DNA of 64,000 nucleotides. Source: Armatimonadota bacterium. Its GTDB lineage: Bacteria; Armatimonadota; UBA5829; DSUL01. Numbering within the stretch: the stretch's first letter is position 1; each line of letters begins with the position of its first letter. The notes below the pieces were generated by a model. That model did no database searches. It worked only from the letters and a program-made list of their open reading frames with translations, and was not told where the DNA came from. Below are positions 33,812 to 54,988 of this stretch, piece after piece. The DNA lies in the NCBI GenBank assembly GCA_039811685.1, contig JBDHZC010000002.1, forward strand, positions 576,001 through 640,000, read 5' to 3'. Both the position numbers and the translations under genes were made by a program.

Positions 33812-36778
33812 CTACTTGGCAATCAACGCTGCAGCGATTGCGACGTTTCCGACAATGCGGGCAATCTCAGAGATGCCATCCCACCGGTTGCGCGGCGCGG
33901 TGAGGGCTTTTGCTGGAACGATGATGATGTCGCCAAGCTCCACCTCCCGCACGGAAGAGCGGGGAGCGATGTCTCCATTGGCGCGTACGACGACAACATT
34001 CTTCTTGTCTGCGTCGCGCGCATAGTTACCGACTCTCTTGACATAGTCGTCAATCCGCTGTCCCGGACGGTAAACAACCACAGAAGGGTTTATGACCGCG
34101 CCTGCGACACTGACCACCAGCGGTTTCTTCGGGACGACCAGTTTATCGCCAGCTTCCAGCGGAATGTCGTCCTCAGACCCGGGATGAGCCAGCGCGGAGG
34201 TAAGGTGAATTGTCAGACGGCTGGTCCTGGATACCTGCTCCACTGTGCGGGGTTGGTCCAGCATCACTTCCCCACGCGGGCCAGCCTGCGCCCCCCTGGA
34301 CTGGTCCGCAATGTTGGTGAGAACGGACGTGGCAGCCAAGGTCGTGTTCCCCGTGGAGACCGACGGTGTTGAAACGGCCGGCGCCCGGATGCCGTACTTC
34401 GCCAGTTCGAGTGTTCTGAGCTCATCGCTCAGCTTGTCGAGTCCCTGCTGAATGTCAGCGGCGATGTCAACCTGGCGCTCGGCCAGCACCACGCTGGTAT
34501 CTCGCGCAAAGATTGCGCCCTCCGCGAAGGCGTCTCCGGTCAGTCCACCAGCTCTGGCTATCAGGCTGGAGAGCTTCTCTCCGCGAGCCGTCAGAGCGTA
34601 TGGTCCGGGGTACTTCACTTCACCAGCCAGATAAACCACCTCGGCCTGAACCTGCGCATCCCGCCGGTTGCGCACGGAAACCTGATCCCGATCCTGCAGA
34701 ATGAGATTGTCCGTTTCAGCGCCGTCCATGGCTTTGGCAAGGTTGACGGTGAGCACCTGCAGTTGTCCGTTCTCCGCCGGATCAGCGCGGCCAATCTCAA
34801 CTACTCCGTAAGCCTCGGGTTTCGCCCCACCCGCAGCTATGATCAGGTCGCGCAGGCGCATGTTCTCTTTGCGCTCATAGACTCCTGGGCGGCTGACCTC
34901 ACCCTCAATGCCGACAGTGCGGTTCAGAGAGGCGGCTTCTTCAAGAGAGTAGATAATGACGCGGTCGCGCGGCTGAAGGGCGATATCCTGCGAAGCTTCA
35001 CGCGCCATCGCCCCCCTCAGGTTGGCGCTGAGAAGCTGCGTGCCGCCGTCCGGAGTCACGCGGATAACTGTGGCGCGGTCAAGGAAAATCTCGGTGTCAT
35101 CAAAGCCTTCGGCGCGCTGCACGAGAGCCGAGAGCGTCATAGCGTCGGAGAGCTCGTAGGCGCCCGGGCGCTTGACATGACCGATAATCTCCACCCGATT
35201 AGCGGCGTCGTCCAACACCGGACGAACCAGCACAGAGTCACCGTTCTGCAATGGAATCCGCCAGTCCGGCGCAGTTGGGGAGGACAGGGCTAGATCCATC
35301 ATGATCTTCTTTGTGGAGCCAACTACACGCTCAATGCGCACATCGCTGAGGGAAGCCAGACCGCTGGCGCCGCCAGCCATCCGCAGGACGTCGCCCACGT
35401 CGGTAGGGCCGTTTATCTCATATATCGCAGGGCGGCGCACTTCTCCCAGCACAGTTACGGTGGGACCAAGTGCAGGCACAAACACACTGTCTCCGCTTTG
35501 CAGTGTCAGGTCCTTTGAGCGGTCTCCCTTGAGAAGGATGTCGTACAGATCAACGGTGGCCAGAGTCTGTTTGTTGCGCTCAACGCGGATGGTGCGCAAA
35601 GAGCCGGTCATGCTGGGGCCACCGGCGCTGTACAGAGCGTTCAAGAGCGTGGACAGTCCCGGAAGAACATAGGAACCCGGCTTCTTGACTTCGCCGATAA
35701 CGAACACTTGAATGGGGCGGATCGAGCTCAGAGCCACCTGCGTCATCAGAGCCGGAAACTTGGCCCGCACCTGACCTGCGATGGCCTGCTGAGCGCCCAG
35801 GACCGTCATCCCGCTGACTTTGATGAGGCCGACATTGGGAATCTGCACGCGCCCAAGGGCGTCCACCAGAAGCTGCAGATTCGTCTCCTGGCCAACAGGG
35901 CTCGTGAGGATGACACGGACGTAATCCCCCGGACCGAGCGGGTACTCGGCCGGAGCGGGAAGATTTGGAATGGGTTGAAATCCTTCACTGCCCGCATTGA
36001 AGAAGTCGTAGCCAAAGGGCGTGACCTGGAGACCCTGCGGCCCGGGGGGCAGCAGGACTGGCGAACTCAGAACCGGCGCTTGCTGCGGCTGCGGCTGTGG
36101 TTGAGGAGGCTGGACAGAGGGCGTGACCGAAGGCGCGGATACTTGCGTCTGTGGAGGCTGCGAAGGCTGCAACAACCCGGGCTGAAGGGCGCCTGGCGCA
36201 GAAAGTGGTTGCGCGCCAGTCGAGACGGCGGGCGGATAGATGGGCAACGGCTGCGGCTGGGGCGGCTGTCCGGCAGTGCTTTGAGACGGCGAGGTGGCTG
36301 ATGCTCCTGGTTGTGAAGGCTGCAGCGCAAACGGAGACGGCGGCTGCGGCGCTGGATAGCTAACCTGAGGAACAGCAGGTGGTGCGATGGAACCTGAAGG
36401 AGCCGGCGCGGGAACTCCATAGCTTCCTGGTGGAGCTATGGCAGCCGGCGGATAGACGAAATAGTACTGCGGGCCGCTGTAATACTGCGGAGGGAGAAAC
36501 TGCGGTGTCGCTGAGGCGGGCGGATAGCTGTTGACACCGGGCGCGGGGTATTGCCACGGCTGCCCGGTATACCTCACAGGCGGCATTGCGTACGGCGGTG
36601 GGTAACCAGGGCTGTAGGTGTACCCATAATAGTTGTAGCCGTAGCCGGGGTTGGAATAGGCTGGGCTTTGCGTCTGCGCGTTCGCGACAGAGAGCAGTGC
36701 CAGAAATACTCCCAGCGATACCGAAGCGCACCGTACCTTTGCGCCGAATCTCAAGAGTCTGTTGTAGGGGTTAGGCAT
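33812..36778 (-). CDS. Polysaccharide export protein with multiple SLBB repeats (Wza/KpsD-like)
   Basis: PFGYDFF, Y.LGPGD, VIGEV..PG.Y and repeated 'AGG' SLBB units; GGAGG RBS. Confidence 0.9.
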   Translation of the reverse strand: MPNPYNRLLRFGAKVRCASVSLGVFLALLSVANAQTQSPAYSNPGYGYNYYGYTYSPGYPPPYAMPPVRYTGQPWQYPAPGVNSYPPASATPQFLPPQYYSGPQYYFVYPPAAIAPPGSYGVPAPAPSGSIAPPAVPQVSYPAPQPPSPFALQPSQPGASATSPSQSTAGQPPQPQPLPIYPPAVSTGAQPLSAPGALQPGLLQPSQPPQTQVSAPSVTPSVQPPQPQPQPQQAPVLSSPVLLPPGPQGLQVTPFGYDFFNAGSEGFQPIPNLPAPAEYPLGPGDYVRVILTSPVGQETNLQLLVDALGRVQIPNVGLIKVSGMTVLGAQQAIAGQVRAKFPALMTQVALSSIRPIQVFVIGEVKKPGSYVLPGLSTLLNALYSAGGPSMTGSLRTIRVERNKQTLATVDLYDILLKGDRSKDLTLQSGDSVFVPALGPTVTVLGEVRRPAIYEINGPTDVGDVLRMAGGASGLASLSDVRIERVVGSTKKIMMDLALSSPTAPDWRIPLQNGDSVLVRPVLDDAANRVEIIGHVKRPGAYELSDAMTLSALVQRAEGFDDTEIFLDRATVIRVTPDGGTQLLSANLRGAMAREASQDIALQPRDRVIIYSLEEAASLNRTVGIEGEVSRPGVYERKENMRLRDLIIAAGGAKPEAYGVVEIGRADPAENGQLQVLTVNLAKAMDGAETDNLILQDRDQVSVRNRRDAQVQAEVVYLAGEVKYPGPYALTARGEKLSSLIARAGGLTGDAFAEGAIFARDTSVVLAERQVDIAADIQQGLDKLSDELRTLELAKYGIRAPAVSTPSVSTGNTTLAATSVLTNIADQSRGAQAGPRGEVMLDQPRTVEQVSRTSRLTIHLTSALAHPGSEDDIPLEAGDKLVVPKKPLVVSVAGAVINPSVVVYRPGQRIDDYVKRVGNYARDADKKNVVVVRANGDIAPRSSVREVELGDIIIVPAKALTAPRNRWDGISEIARIVGNVAIAAALIAK

Positions 36779-36961
36779 GCCTTTGATCCTCCAGACGGAG
36801 CCTGCAAACGTAGAGTGCGCCTTCCTTAGCTGCACTGACTGTCACCATACAACAAAGCCCGCCGCCGCAGCCGCTCTGACGGGTGGGTGAACGCCTCATC
36901 ATATACCACTGCAAGACTCCCGGCGTCAAGAATTCTTGAACTTATGGCTCAGTCTCAACTT

Positions 36962-40995: not shown

Positions 40996-42000
40996 ATGGC
41001 AAAAGACACTGGCATCCGCGTTGGCGTTATCGGGTACGGCGGCGCGTTCAATATGGGCAAGGGACATCTGTCCCACTGTCAGGCGGCGGGAATGATACCG
41101 TCTGCGGTGTGCGATCTCGACCCGGCCCGCACAGAAGTGGCCAAAGCGGACTTTCCCGGTATCGCGACGTACAACAACGTTGAGGAGTTTCTGACCAAAG
41201 CGCCAGTGGACCTGGTCATTGTTATTACACCGCACAACACACATGCTGATCTGTGCATCCAGGCTTCCAACGCCGGCAAGCATGTGATTACTGAAAAGCC
41301 ATTCAGCATCACCGTCGCCGAAGCCACCGCGATGATTGAGGCGGCCAAGAAGGCTGGAAAGATGCTCAGCGTCTATCACAACCGGCGCTGGGACGGGGAC
41401 TTTATGGCCATCCGTCAGACTATAGAGGCGGGACTCATCGGCGACGTGTTCTCCATTGAGATGGGGATGGGCGGCTACGGGCACCCCGGAACCTGGTGGC
41501 GGGCGGACAAGAAGATATCCGGTGGCAACTTCTACGACTGGGGCGCTCACATCATTGACTGGATGCTCCACATTGTGAACAAGCCCATGGTGGACGTGAC
41601 CGGCATCTTCCAGAAGCGCGTCTGGATGGACGTCACCAACGAGGACCATACACAGGCCATTGTGCGCTTTGAGGACAACGTCTGGGCGAATGTAGAGATG
41701 TCGCAGATTGCGGCGGTTTCAAAGCCGCGCTACCGCATTCTGGGCACAAAGGGCGGCATTCTGGACCGATGGGAAGGGCATTTCACCCTTTTCAGCGACA
41801 TCGCGGGCTTGCGGGCAGAATCGAAGGTACCCTATTTGAAGGACGACTGGGCGGCGTACTACGGCAATATTGCCGCGCATCTGAGTGAGGGAGCGCCGCT
41901 GGCCGTGACACCTGAGTCAGCGCGAAGGATCATCTCTGTCATTGAGACAGCGGAGCGTTCCGCTGAGGCTGGTAAAGCGCTGGCGCCACCCTTCCGGTAG
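40996..42000 (+). CDS. Gfo/Idh/MocA oxidoreductase
   Basis: VGVIGYG, TPHNTH, GKHVITEKP, YHNRRWDGDF, DWGAH. Confidence 0.93.
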   Translation: MAKDTGIRVGVIGYGGAFNMGKGHLSHCQAAGMIPSAVCDLDPARTEVAKADFPGIATYNNVEEFLTKAPVDLVIVITPHNTHADLCIQASNAGKHVITEKPFSITVAEATAMIEAAKKAGKMLSVYHNRRWDGDFMAIRQTIEAGLIGDVFSIEMGMGGYGHPGTWWRADKKISGGNFYDWGAHIIDWMLHIVNKPMVDVTGIFQKRVWMDVTNEDHTQAIVRFEDNVWANVEMSQIAAVSKPRYRILGTKGGILDRWEGHFTLFSDIAGLRAESKVPYLKDDWAAYYGNIAAHLSEGAPLAVTPESARRIISVIETAERSAEAGKALAPPFR

Positions 42001-42089
42001 ATCGCGAGAGACCGCCGGCGGATTGCGGCAGTGTAGCAGATACCGCCGGCGTGTTGCGGCACCGTAACAGATACCGTAACACATACCGC

Positions 42090-42388
42090 CGGCGGTTGAA
42101 ACCGCGCCTGCGCAAACAAAGCCTGCCTGCGCAGGCTCAACTCCCGCAGTGTCCGCAGGGACACTTCGTACGGTAGGCGCGACTTCAGCCGCCGAGAACC
42201 CCCAGATTATCCCGCAGGCGGTTGAAACCGCGCCTGCGCAAACAAAGCCTGCCTGCGCAGGCTCAACTCCCACAGTGTCCGCAGGGACACTTCGTACGTA
42301 GGCGCGACTTCAGCCGCCGAGAACCCCCAGATTATCCCTCCGGCGGTTGAAACCGTGCCTACGCAAACAAAGCCTGCCTCCGCAGGCT
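42090..42388. repeat. REP/BIME-like cluster: ~125-bp unit x2.4 built from inverted hairpin elements
   Basis: Units start at 42091, 42217 and 42342; each holds GCGGTT-GA-AACCGC and AGCCTGC-N4-GCAGGCT; full units add AGTGTCC-N4-GGACACT and an inverted GTAGGCGCGACTTCAGCCGCCG. Confidence 0.85.
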
Positions 42389-42417
42389 CTGCGTATGATT
42401 GTTCGATGGAGGACACG

Positions 42418-42449
42418 AAAAAAAAGCCCGCTGAGATTCCTCAGCAGGC
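42418..42449 (-). terminator. Rho-independent terminator
   Basis: GCCTGCTGAG-GAAT-CTCAGCGGGC followed by T8 on the minus strand. Confidence 0.85.
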
Positions 42450-42501
42450 GTAGTGTCAAAATATATGACAGAAGGAGAAAAAGATGATTTTTGGTTTCCA
42501 C
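42418..42501 (-). ncRNA. Candidate sigma54-dependent small RNA (~85 nt)
   Basis: Lies between a consensus sigma54 promoter and a strong terminator; CU-rich anti-SD tract; no credible CDS on this strand. Confidence 0.6.
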
Positions 42502-42511
42502 TTATTAATAC

Positions 42512-42527
42512 TGCAAGAAGCGTGCCA
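42512..42527 (-). promoter_or_regulatory. Sigma54 (-24/-12) promoter
   Basis: TGGCACG-CTTC-TTGCA, exact match to TGGCACG-N4-TTGCW. Confidence 0.75.
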
Positions 42528-42675
42528 ATGTTCCCGTTCCCAGTATAAATACTGGTAGAAAATGTCCATTTTTCGCTGCCTCGCCTTCTGAGGGAAGCTG
42601 GATGATCTAACCTCAGACCTCTACGGCGAGCGAGAACGCAGGCTAGCAGAATTTTTCCCGTATTCAGAAAAACTC

Positions 42676-42736
42676 TTGACAACAAGTGCCGTCTGTGAGA
42701 ATATTTAGGCGTATATCTAATTAGGCACATGCCTAA
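42676..42736 (+). promoter_or_regulatory. sdpR promoter with two abutting TTAG-N8-CTAA operator-like palindromes
   Basis: TTGACA at 42676; TTAGGCGTATATCTAA (42705-42720) and TTAGGCACATGCCTAA (42721-42736). Confidence 0.6.
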
Positions 42737-42746
42737 GAGCAGTGCA

Positions 42747-43061
42747 ATGTCGACTAACAGCGTATTCAAAGCTCTGGCTGATCCAACGCGGAGGGAGATT
42801 CTCCGGCTGCTTGGGCATGGCGAGATGACGGCGGGTGAGCTGGCCGGGCGCTTCGACGTATCCTGGCCCTCCATGTCACATCACTTTGCCGTTCTGAAGA
42901 AGGCCTCTCTGATCGAGGGACGAAGAGACGGTCAGACAATTTACTATTCGCTGAATACGACAGTGCTGCAGGAGCTGCTGGCGTGGGCTTTTGATCTGGT
43001 TCCGAAGCTCAAAGCGGAGTCATCCGGACACGCCAGGGACGAATCCTCGGAGAAATCATAA
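42747..43061 (+). CDS. sdpR: ArsR-family repressor, SdpR-like
   Basis: FKALADPTRREIL..L..GEMTAGELA..F..S.PSMSHHF..LK...YSLNTTVLQE. Confidence 0.88.
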   Translation: MSTNSVFKALADPTRREILRLLGHGEMTAGELAGRFDVSWPSMSHHFAVLKKASLIEGRRDGQTIYYSLNTTVLQELLAWAFDLVPKLKAESSGHARDESSEKS

Positions 43062-43708
43062 ATGAACAACAGATGGTTCTGGTATTCGGTCGCGCTGAGC
43101 GCGGCTGTGTTCGCCGTAACGATTGTTCTGTATCCGCGCCTGCCGCAGATGATGCCCATCCACTGGAATATTCAGGGACAGGCGGACAACTACGCTCCAA
43201 AGTGGCCGGGGGCATTCCTGATTGCGTTTATGATGGCGGGATGGTGCGTGTGCTTCTGGCTGCTGCGCTGGCTCTCTCCGCGTGACTACGATACCGAGCG
43301 CTTTCGCGAGACGTTTTCCTACATCCTGTTCTGTGTTGCGGCGCTGTTGGCGTACATTCACGCGCTGACGCTGTACTTTGTCTTTGGCCGCATAGATTTT
43401 TCGCGGTGGATGATGGGGGGATTGTTCCTGTTCTTTGCGCTGCTTGGCAACGTCCTGGGGCGCGTGAAGCGCAACTTCTGGGTGGGCGTGCGCACTCCGT
43501 GGACTCTGGCGGATGAAGGGGTTGGAACGCGACGCACCGTCTCGCCGGACGCCTGTGGGTCGCCGGTGGCATAGCGGGGCTGATTCTCACAGTGCTCGGG
43601 GTTGGTTACGTGTGGCTGATAGCCTTCTTTCTGGTTGTTGTGATACTTCCCGCTCCTTATTCGCTTTATCTCTCAAAGAAACCGTCGGCGAATGGCGCGG
43701 CGCATTGA
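43062..43708 (+). pseudogene. sdpI: SdpI-family membrane protein with a 1-nt frameshift near 43518-43523
   Basis: MPIHWN..GQAD and NFWVGVRTPWTLADE in the first frame; the conserved WNATHRLAGRLW continues in another frame to TGA 43708. Confidence 0.75.
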
Positions 43709-54915: not shown

Positions 54916-54988
54916 CGGTTGCGCCCGCGCTCAGGCAGGGCTGGGCTCTGTTTCAATCGAAGAGGGCGCAAGAGAAGGAGTGTTTTGA

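Follow-up and report, generated by a model that had tools for sequence, protein, structure and literature searches.

Among the sigma-E-dependent small RNAs (sRNAs) of enterobacteria, RybB, MicA and MicL are single-copy, and each uses an unpaired 5′ seed to repress many abundant exported envelope proteins. Activators without a DNA-binding domain, for which no upstream site is needed, are known in other bacteria (FlgR, CtcC); in Campylobacter jejuni, FlgR is the flagellar bacterial enhancer-binding protein (bEBP) and can act without DNA binding, and the sRNA CJnc230 is linked to the RpoN tier of the same organism. Passages of one report describe CJnc230 with RpoN-dependent flagellar genes (PMC11187230), and passages of two others present Qrr1-5 of Vibrio (Rfam RF00378) as quorum-regulatory sRNAs (10.1101/2021.07.01.450815, PMC3730234). 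As regards surface proteins, parts of Haft et al. 2006 (PMC1569441) record sigma-54 motifs before PEP-CTERM genes, together with PrsK, PrsR and PrsT proteins, in Proteobacteria, and tie the sigma-54/PEP-CTERM system to exopolysaccharide; other authors connect it with activated-sludge floc formation, and an RpoN-dependent PEP-CTERM gene is described in Aquincola (PMC9850573). The present report concerns a predicted sRNA gene, preceded by a sigma-54 promoter, on the minus strand of a 64,000-nt stretch of DNA from an Armatimonadota bacterium (assembly GCA_039811685.1, contig JBDHZC010000002.1, positions 576,001 to 640,000). This stretch is referred to below as the window, and coordinates without a contig number are those of the window. 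The source genome, G000, is an activated-sludge metagenome-assembled genome of 3.42 Mb in 15 contigs, 97% complete, in which the window is G000:C2:576001-640000.

The locus very probably holds a genuine sRNA gene driven by sigma-54, a stand-alone gene of which this genome has five copies. The overall explanation that accounts best for the sequence data, and that is held here to be somewhat probable, is that the gene would produce a trans-acting sRNA of ~75-90 nt that pairs with the Shine–Dalgarno (SD)-spacer-AUG region of some PEP-CTERM mRNAs and represses them.

An initial annotation of the window, made from its letters alone, had placed on the minus strand an exact sigma-54 promoter, an anti-SD seed, a small UGUCA/UGACA hairpin and a strong terminator ending in U8, all within an AT-rich island. 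Each of these elements was recovered where it had been placed:

42527-42512, minus strand: sigma-54 promoter TGGCACGCTTCTTGCA, with the -24 GG at 42526-42525 and the -12 GC at 42514-42513
42418-42501, minus strand: predicted ~84-nt sRNA, from the inferred +1 to the end of the U8 tract, its ends inferred, not mapped
42466-42499, minus strand: 5′ seed region GGAAACCAAAAAUCAUCUUUUUCUCCUUCUGUCA, beginning 12 nt after the promoter element
42486-42466, minus strand: seed core CAUCUUUUUCUCCUUCUGUCA, part of the 5′ seed region
42454-42470, minus strand: small hairpin UGUCA-N7-UGACA, in which UGUCA 42470-42466 pairs with UGACA 42458-42454, overlapping the 3′ end of the seed
42418-42449, minus strand: intrinsic terminator, a stem-loop at 42449-42426 (10 bp, 7 of them G-C; loop of 4 nt) followed by U8 at 42425-42418

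The promoter sequence TGGCAC-N5-TTGCA is unique in the window, where 0.05 matches were expected by chance; at least one match was obtained in 5 of 100 shuffles. It predicts a +1 near 42501, about 12 nt past the -12 GC, from which the RNA would continue as AUCAUCUUUUUCUCCUUCU. The terminator was also detected by a consensus terminator scan. The 84-nt RNA folds with an energy of -24.1 kcal/mol (z = -4.40), a stability that none of 200 shuffles equalled. The centroid structure leaves the first ~31 nt free of pairing, and with them the seed bases as far as 42471, the last five (UGUCA 42470-42466) being the 5′ arm of hairpin 1; the minimum free energy structure adds a weak 3-bp stem between nt 2-4 and nt 8-10. 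The same layout, an unpaired conserved seed leading to a terminator and U-tail, was present in all seven homologues that were folded, and the other copies in the genome form a comparable small hairpin of 4-6 bp with shifted partners. The G+C content of the locus (42400-42800) is 0.43-0.47, as against 0.52-0.64 in the flanks.

The main reason for regarding the element as more than a chance match is its recurrence, in four further copies in the genome and in homologues across the class. A check for paralogous copies had been suggested in the initial annotation. A DNA search of the genome with 42400-42600 gave three further places, and a search with the core gave a fifth copy, the homology starting exactly at the promoter:

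c1, window (42418-42501), minus strand: exact promoter
c2, C1:768625-768713: exact promoter
c3, C1:768496-768579: 134 nt behind c2 and in tandem with it
c4, C3:285445-285524: -12 element GTGCA
c5, C5:99004-99093: exact promoter

The spacing TTGCA-N12-GGAAACC is constant in four of the five. The remaining copy, c3, has a GG-GC spacing shorter by 1 nt and two seed substitutions, and looks like a decaying copy. Among the copies, UUUUCUCCUU(C/U)UGUCA is invariant but for one position (alignment T21-A36, seven sequences, one variable column), and the terminator stems differ in sequence with their pairing kept.

The flanks of the five copies are unrelated, homology being confined to the promoter and the RNA, and this bears directly on the suggestion that the element acts in cis on a downstream gene, as its leader or attenuator, or that it is a repeat or mobile element carrying a promoter. 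Leader terminators do exist in the regulon, as is evident from C3:83135-83220 (L100): the leader of a spondin-domain PEP-CTERM gene there is 163 nt long and contains a hairpin and U-run, which come no more than ~80 nt after a sigma-54 promoter; that element may itself be an attenuator or a second short RNA. A repeat array also abuts the window copy: directly behind the sRNA terminator, at 42083-42423, lie three tandem palindrome-rich units resembling repetitive extragenic palindromes or miniature inverted-repeat transposable elements (REP/MITE-like), with a period of ~125 nt, the second and third having 97% and 64% identity to the first. The unit has 21 blastn matches on five contigs of the genome. 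On the minus strand downstream of the window copy, however, there is only this array and a convergent gene; convergent genes likewise lie opposite c2/c3 and c5, and for c4 the next gene is ~970 nt away. Together with the unrelated flanks, these arrangements render a leader or repeat highly improbable.

The copies also speak to the coding potential of the locus. According to another reading, the expressed unit would be a small protein, either from the plus-strand ORF of 24 aa that the initial annotation had itself named as a competing possibility, with GAAGGAGAAAAAGATG as its ribosome-binding site and start, or from a leaderless GTG ORF of 63 aa on the sRNA strand (42310-42501). The plus strand of the window copy does read AGAAGGAGAAAAAG-ATG followed by 24 codons, and the minus-strand ORF does begin at a GTG at 42501. 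Neither ORF is conserved among the copies and relatives, and both were rejected. The plus-strand ATG is present in only two of the five copies, c1 and c4, in frames that differ relative to the conserved bases; c2 and c5 have ATA, and c3 also has no ATG at that position. As for the minus-strand ORF, c4 and the copies in G002/G004 lack a start codon, beginning with GCGG or ACGG; in c2 a stop comes after 11 codons, and the f3 copies have a different frame. It is the promoter and terminator, on the minus strand, that are conserved, and a small protein is hardly credible as the product.

For searches beyond the genome, a covariance model (R1) was built from the RNA part alone, with the promoter excluded. 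In the family, R1 matched all six genomes (17 matches, two to five copies in each), the window copy scoring 82.3 bits. Within the 45 nt upstream of these 17 matches, an exact TGGCAC-N5-TTGCA was found at the same distance in 14; two others had one substitution in the -12 element, and the last, c3, was degenerate. Since matches to a model of the RNA alone carry the promoter at a fixed distance, the promoter counts as an independent feature of the gene that is itself conserved. R1 matched 23 of the 53 class genomes; 24 class matches outside the family were inspected, and a sigma-54-type promoter was seen at 17 and none at six, one being N-masked. Several class matches are arranged as tandem arrays of two or three.

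A second model (R2), built from 37 aligned matches, extended the distribution to 43 of the 53 class genomes, with a score of 77.4 bits for the window copy. Among 33 distinct sequences, all eight modelled terminator pairs had changed on both sides, and 83.7% of the terminator cells were paired, compared with 62.8% in shuffles (0 of 500 reached the observed value) and 33-49% when the partner was slid, the alignment having been fitted to the model, a procedure biased towards structure. Of 151 genomes sampled from the phylum, the 14 class members yielded matches in 11 cases and the 137 others in 10, the latter being single, weak and, in all ten, without a sigma-54 promoter. The combination promoter-N(18-34)-UUUUCUCCUU occurs at 47 loci in 185,579 species genomes; by title, 21 of these belong to Armatimonadota/Armatimonadetes, 11 are designated only 'bacterium' or 'uncultured bacterium' and 15 carry names of other taxa, the last two groups being unchecked.

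The family also follows the sigma factor. rpoN was above the cut-off in 46 of the 53 class genomes, and R2 matches were found in 42 of these 46 as against one of the seven genomes without rpoN (Fisher p = 6e-5, the relatives not being independent). The single exception, G021, has two weak matches, and the one inspected had no promoter.

Two other kinds of short unit were encountered in these searches. At L151, L157 and L158 (G131, G071 and G096, which belong to another family in the phylum), a small unit of a different kind, GUGAAACCUCAUUUUCACCUCCUUUCG and then a terminator, is situated behind a sigma-70-like -10 element in place of a sigma-54 promoter; its CACCUCCUUUC equals the 16S rRNA 3′ tail seen in the source genome, and the unit may represent a second, independently promoted anti-SD sRNA family. 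At L147, L148 and L164 (G012, G018 and G010), a sibling RNA type starts with (G)CACAA(G)AC, continues to a terminator and has CAUCUUUU(U)CCUCCUUC(U/C)CUCC as its core; it has no sigma-54 promoter. G010 carries this sibling type as well as the sigma-54 type, and G012 and G018 have, at one further inspected match, a third seed variant that is not sigma-54-linked.

The initial annotation had named rpoN and bEBP genes as items to be confirmed, and both are encoded in the genome. The RpoN match scores 126.7 bits, and hfq is likewise present (96.8 bits). PF00158 has six matches, one a strong bEBP (235 bits) and the other five at 21-33 bits, so that one gene stands out as the sole true bEBP:

C1:498022-499221: bEBP of 399 aa, with REC at 10-120, Sigma54_activat at 149-315 and the AAA lid at 321-397

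No helix-turn-helix (HTH) was found in this protein by Pfam. It aligns to the AtoC, NtrC and PrsR profiles of NCBIfam only as far as ~380 of 445-463 positions, with scores below the curated cut-offs. Its orthologues in G001, G004, G013 and G023 stop at the same point, without a DNA-binding domain, whereas the second bEBPs examined in G013 and G010 (L172, L170) retain a Fis-type HTH. G001 and G004, of the same family as the source genome, have a single bEBP each. More broadly, the source genome's family (f1) has one rpoN and one bEBP, and most genomes of f2 and f4 and several of f3 have two rpoN paralogues and two or three bEBPs. Immediately upstream of the bEBP gene is that of a cytoplasmic kinase of 1187 aa with four GAF domains, PAS, HisKA and HATPase.

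Given a sole bEBP without a DNA-binding domain, the sRNA gene would not be expected to have an activator site. Two palindromes upstream of the promoter had been put forward in the initial annotation as possible sites of this kind:

42555-42540: palindrome CCAGTATTTATACTGG, not shown to belong to the unit
42572-42559: palindrome AAAATGGACATTTT, not shown to belong to the unit

Both are present; the proposed role in binding an activator is not supported, as, quite apart from the structure of the bEBP, neither palindrome recurs within 200 nt upstream of any of the other 11 sigma-54 promoters, even with three substitutions allowed. Two candidate motifs were considered and rejected. The best 8-mers occurred in 9 of 12 upstream regions, as against 6-8 in shuffles, so that no common upstream motif stands out; TGGACA, apparently enriched in the genome, showed no enrichment in relatives (6 of 72 upstream vs 2 of 37 control regions), in a set that includes unchecked loci with non-Armatimonadota titles.

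Exact TGGCAC-N5-TTGCA sequences number 12 in the genome. Three drive sRNA copies, seven precede six PEP-CTERM genes, one precedes a REC-PilZN-PilZ gene and one is inside a peptidase ORF. TIGR02595 was above its cut-off in seven of ten scanned proteins, drawn from the predicted targets and the sigma-54-driven genes, and the genome has three exosortase genes. One of the PEP-CTERM genes, C7:141698, has an unusually long leader of ~500 nt, and a seed-like tract, CUCUUUUUCUCCUUCAUC, lies on the plus strand at C7:~141105-141125, ~80 nt upstream of the sigma-54 promoter of that gene.

The seed itself suggests a mode of action. The reverse complement of the core, GAAGGAGAAAAAGAUG, comprises an SD, a 6-nt purine spacer and a start codon, and the core as it stands in the sRNA ends in CUUUUCUCCUUCUGUCA. 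It is likely that the sRNA acts by pairing at initiation regions. The proposal that the RNA mainly titrates a protein or another RNA, as a sponge or decoy, has in its favour the frequency with which multi-copy sRNAs (CsrB and CrcZ, for instance) serve as protein sponges. The RNA has a single GGA motif, however, with no repeated protein-binding motif, and its invariant part is one unpaired stretch followed by variable terminators, as in base-pairing seeds; a sponge is accordingly judged very unlikely.

The genome was searched for sequences perfectly complementary to nt 1-46 of the window RNA, the sRNA genes being excluded. Six non-self complements of at least 14 nt were found, four of them on PEP-CTERM start regions, where they cover the SD:

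C1:180152: 18-nt complement AGAAGGAGAAAAAGAUGA, PEP-CTERM start, extending 1 nt beyond the AUG
C12:2218: 17-nt complement, PEP-CTERM start
C9:29763: 15-nt complement, PEP-CTERM start
C5:82791: 14-nt complement, PEP-CTERM start

All start regions (-40 to +25) were then ranked with RNAduplex, on the basis of a crude gene caller (2565 genes, 85% of the genome). The top-ranked region is that of a PEP-CTERM gene on C1, at -34.5 kcal/mol. A PEP-CTERM-like C-terminus, as recognized by a regular expression, is present in 56 of the 2565 genes, and these account for 7 of the 10 best duplexes, 9 of the best 14 (0.31 expected, p = 1e-12) and 14 of the best 37. Other proteins with signal peptides were not enriched, with 8 in the top 37 as against 8.1 expected. 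When the comparison was restricted to genes with an AAGGAG SD, the PEP-CTERM genes still paired better, with a mean of -22.1 compared with -15.8 kcal/mol for the others (p = 7e-8); the PEP-CTERM lead thus survives a control for SD strength. The top 60 include 17 PEP-CTERM genes, whose mature proteins show detectable similarity in only 3 of 136 pairwise comparisons; being largely dissimilar, these proteins indicate that the shared start regions are not those of recent duplicates.

Related genomes were examined in the same way. In G001, the 31 PEP-CTERM starts had a mean of -27.2 kcal/mol with that genome's own seeds, and 61% were at or below -25, compared with 5.3% of a surrogate background consisting of start regions of the source genome. 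When a 19-nt class-consensus seed was used, the mean was -16.0 for 31 PEP-CTERM starts in five sRNA-bearing genomes of three other families, as against -10.6 for 11 starts of G039 (p = 4e-4) and -9.5 for all genes of the source genome. G039 has PEP-CTERM genes and neither rpoN nor an sRNA match, and its starts have an SD without the purine spacer. Six genomes lacking both rpoN and the sRNA were checked for PEP-CTERM matches, of which there were none in four, one in the fifth and 13 in G039. The exact 17-mer GAAGGAGAAAAAGATGV has nine matches in the class genomes, its reversed control having none; three are in the source genome, one of these being the antisense of the sRNA.

These results do not all point one way, and it is possible to hold that the RNA is a real sigma-54-driven sRNA which is a general anti-SD regulator or has other main targets, the PEP-CTERM lead reflecting no more than strong, purine-rich SDs. 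This alternative is regarded as unlikely, but it is the observations gathered here that weigh in its favour or otherwise against PEP-CTERM mRNAs as the targets. The seed resembles the 3′ tail of 16S rRNA (CACCUCCUUUCU in the 16S of this genome, UCUCCUUCU in the sRNA), and strong SDs are general in PEP-CTERM genes, AAGGAG being present in 25 of the 56. Starts pairing at -22 kcal/mol or better number 54, and five shuffled seeds gave 11-70; as such energy counts are not clearly above those of shuffled seeds, specificity rests on the genes that lead the list and on the long perfect matches. Control oligonucleotides that keep CTCC also favour PEP-CTERM genes at the low stringency of 11 of 15 matched positions (17 of 63, for example). 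Four rpoN-bearing genomes with 7-30 PEP-CTERM genes give no R2 match, and the comparison with genomes lacking the sRNA amounts to a single one, G039, which looks AT-richer. The start codons were taken from our own crude caller, and at least two that proved wrong were amended manually. In four relatives, the best target's orthologues (32-39% identity) keep only moderate energies of -21 to -24 kcal/mol. Of the six GAAGGAGAAAAAGATGV sites in other genomes, just two coincide with PEP-CTERM starts, these being an orthologous pair in G013/G017, and the remaining four lie elsewhere. The sigma-54-driven PEP-CTERM genes pair less well than the rest (-16.0, n=6, vs -18.5, n=51), a difference that is not significant (p = 0.19) and amounts to no more than a trend towards such genes being spared by the sRNA, and the single sigma-54-driven PEP-CTERM gene of G001 pairs weakest of its 31. 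Lastly, metatranscriptome contigs from four runs cover 41847-42137, 42513-42670 and 42783-43038, with none on 42418-42501; these contigs come from size-selected libraries and are uninformative on sRNA expression either way.

Set against a general anti-SD regulator is, in the first place, the margin of 6 kcal/mol by which PEP-CTERM genes lead among genes that all have an AAGGAG SD. The perfect matches of 14-18 nt at four PEP-CTERM genes run on through the spacer and AUG, and once at least 13 of 15 positions are required, five of six genes are PEP-CTERM genes, as against 0-2 genes for the control oligonucleotides. The PEP-CTERM starts of the lone sRNA-less genome, moreover, are without the extended tract. 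In view of both sets of observations, whether PEP-CTERM mRNAs are the main targets of the sRNA appears evenly balanced on the complementarity data.

Two further groups of genes were considered as targets. The initial annotation had drawn attention to the gene of a SIS-domain protein, and AGAAGGAG is indeed present at 54973-54980, 8 nt before its ATG; as a target the gene fares poorly, the match being only the 8-nt SD core, and it is not among the 45 best predicted targets. Feedback on the system itself was not indicated, in that the starts of the kinase, bEBP, rpoN, hfq, exosortase and PilZ-regulator genes rank no higher than 226, at -18.6 kcal/mol or weaker.

If pairing with PEP-CTERM mRNAs is taken as the working explanation, a mechanism can be outlined. 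The GAF/PAS histidine kinase would phosphorylate the adjacent REC-AAA+ bEBP, which would activate all of the sigma-54 promoters from solution, with no need of an upstream site. Sigma-54 and the bEBP would thereby switch on one set of PEP-CTERM genes, the PilZ response regulator and the sRNAs. Transcription of the sRNA, dependent on RpoN and the bEBP, is expected to start ~12 nt after the -24/-12 promoter and to stop at the intrinsic terminator. With Hfq, whose involvement is inferred, the sRNAs might then pair with PEP-CTERM mRNAs of a second set, across the SD-AUG, and so keep ribosomes from binding; repression is the predicted direction because the pairing falls on the SD-AUG region. The net effect would be a re-programmed set of surface or matrix proteins. 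A wider version of this scheme, which falls somewhat short of being probable and is offered tentatively, is a class-wide, Qrr-like surface circuit in which one GAF-rich kinase and a non-DNA-binding bEBP govern a PEP-CTERM/REC-PilZ set (the latter binding cyclic di-GMP) plus two to seven sRNA copies, with a seed antisense to the SD-spacer-AUG common to a second PEP-CTERM set that is otherwise unrelated, so that one signal swaps the exosortase-sorted repertoires, the purine-rich starts having co-evolved with the sRNA.

The surroundings of the gene were also recorded. Its nearest neighbours are:

40996-42000, plus strand: Gfo/Idh/MocA oxidoreductase gene, convergent with the sRNA unit
42729-43061, plus strand: ArsR-family gene, divergent from the sRNA unit

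A gene for a DUF1648/SdpI-like membrane protein (43062-43574) abuts the ArsR-family gene, upstream of which are a sigma-70-like promoter, TTGACA-18-AATATT (42676-42705), and the palindrome TTAGGCACATGCCTAA; the two genes resemble an autoregulated pair, divergent from the sRNA. A contig of metatranscriptome run X16 (depth 4.7) spans 42513-42670, starting at the sigma-54 promoter and reaching, upstream of it, approximately as far as the arsR promoter, with the sRNA and the arsR gene both outside it; an unannotated transcript or carried-over DNA could account for this contig. Further away, an ORF of 1007 aa (33812-36835) has a long proline-rich N-terminal half and then a region that, judged by eye, is polysaccharide-export-like, and may be part of the exopolysaccharide side of the PEP-CTERM system. 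Among 24 public runs listed, 20 hold part of the stretch, five of the 20 being recorded as RNA; the DNA runs are mainly sludge, activated-sludge and bioreactor metagenomes, with one biofilm and one unlabelled run.

As to known families, the initial annotation had recognized none, and Rfam 15 agrees, in that no family reached its gathering score anywhere in the window. Qrr (RF00378) was not among the 27 Rfam matches with E values up to 10 in 42100-42900. The best sub-threshold match was Ref84 (RF02846; 35.1 bits, E = 0.013, gathering cut-off 52), which rests on the U-rich tract and terminator. OmrA-B, SdsR and RseX, at 20-22 bits, reflect a shared general layout, and the sub-threshold matches 'CRISPR-DR28' and 'mir-H3' are due to the REP/MITE-like array. 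In the literature, searched as full text with supplements excluded, nothing was found on an sRNA of Armatimonadota or on sRNA control of PEP-CTERM/exosortase substrates. The family thus appears to be a previously undescribed one, recognizable by its promoter, seed and terminator and multi-copy in habit, and its predicted regulon, unreported so far, is coherent and testable. Should the predicted targets be borne out, a post-transcriptional layer would be added to the sigma-54/PEP-CTERM system, in an organism whose habitat is activated sludge. The organism is uncultured, but the predictions can be tested by reporter fusions in Escherichia coli.

Comparison with the systems introduced at the outset places the locus among several of them and within none. 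As with CJnc230, an sRNA is tied to a sigma-54 regulon in an organism having a bEBP able to act unbound; the regulon there is flagellar, the sRNA has one copy and its sequence is unrelated. RybB, MicA and MicL share with the present RNA an alternative sigma factor, an unpaired 5′ seed and exported proteins as targets (here predicted), and differ in the sigma factor concerned, the phylum and the class of target, the gene here being multi-copy.

To the PrsK/PrsR/PrsT system, as portrayed in the passages cited, the resemblance lies in the sigma-54 -24/-12 motifs before single-gene PEP-CTERM operons, in an NtrC-type regulator, a histidine kinase and exosortases, and in a setting of activated sludge and floc formation. 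The bEBP, however, scores 386.9 bits against the PrsR model (TIGR02915; cut-off 502.6), its alignment ends at 374 of 445 and it has no Fis HTH; the upstream 'motif 1' is not shared. The kinase is a soluble protein of the form 4xGAF-PAS-HisKA-HATPase, and PrsK was not among the 25 listed of its 94 NCBIfam families. An sRNA arm, in turn, goes unmentioned in the portions of that system's literature that were found.

The closest likeness in design is to Qrr. Both systems have several paralogous sRNA genes of ~80-110 nt, each with its own sigma-54 promoter, under one NtrC-type response regulator (in the present case by prediction), and in both a common seed is kept by copies that differ elsewhere, the RNAs having the layout of Hfq-type sRNAs and ending in intrinsic terminators. 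The Qrr-like layout of a stand-alone, sigma-54-dependent sRNA with an anti-SD seed, as first envisaged in the initial annotation, is supported by every test applied here short of RNA detection. The sRNA is nevertheless not a member of the Qrr family, as there is no similarity in sequence or to the covariance model, and the phylum is different. LuxO has a DNA-binding domain and the activator here does not; the seed here forms an anti-SD/anti-start-codon tract; exoprotein mRNAs are predicted as its targets, in place of master regulators; and no complementarity was found here to the start regions of the kinase, bEBP or rpoN. Should the proposed circuit prove true, it would constitute a second, independent case of the Qrr design, with sibling sigma-54 sRNAs under one response regulator that is unable to bind DNA.

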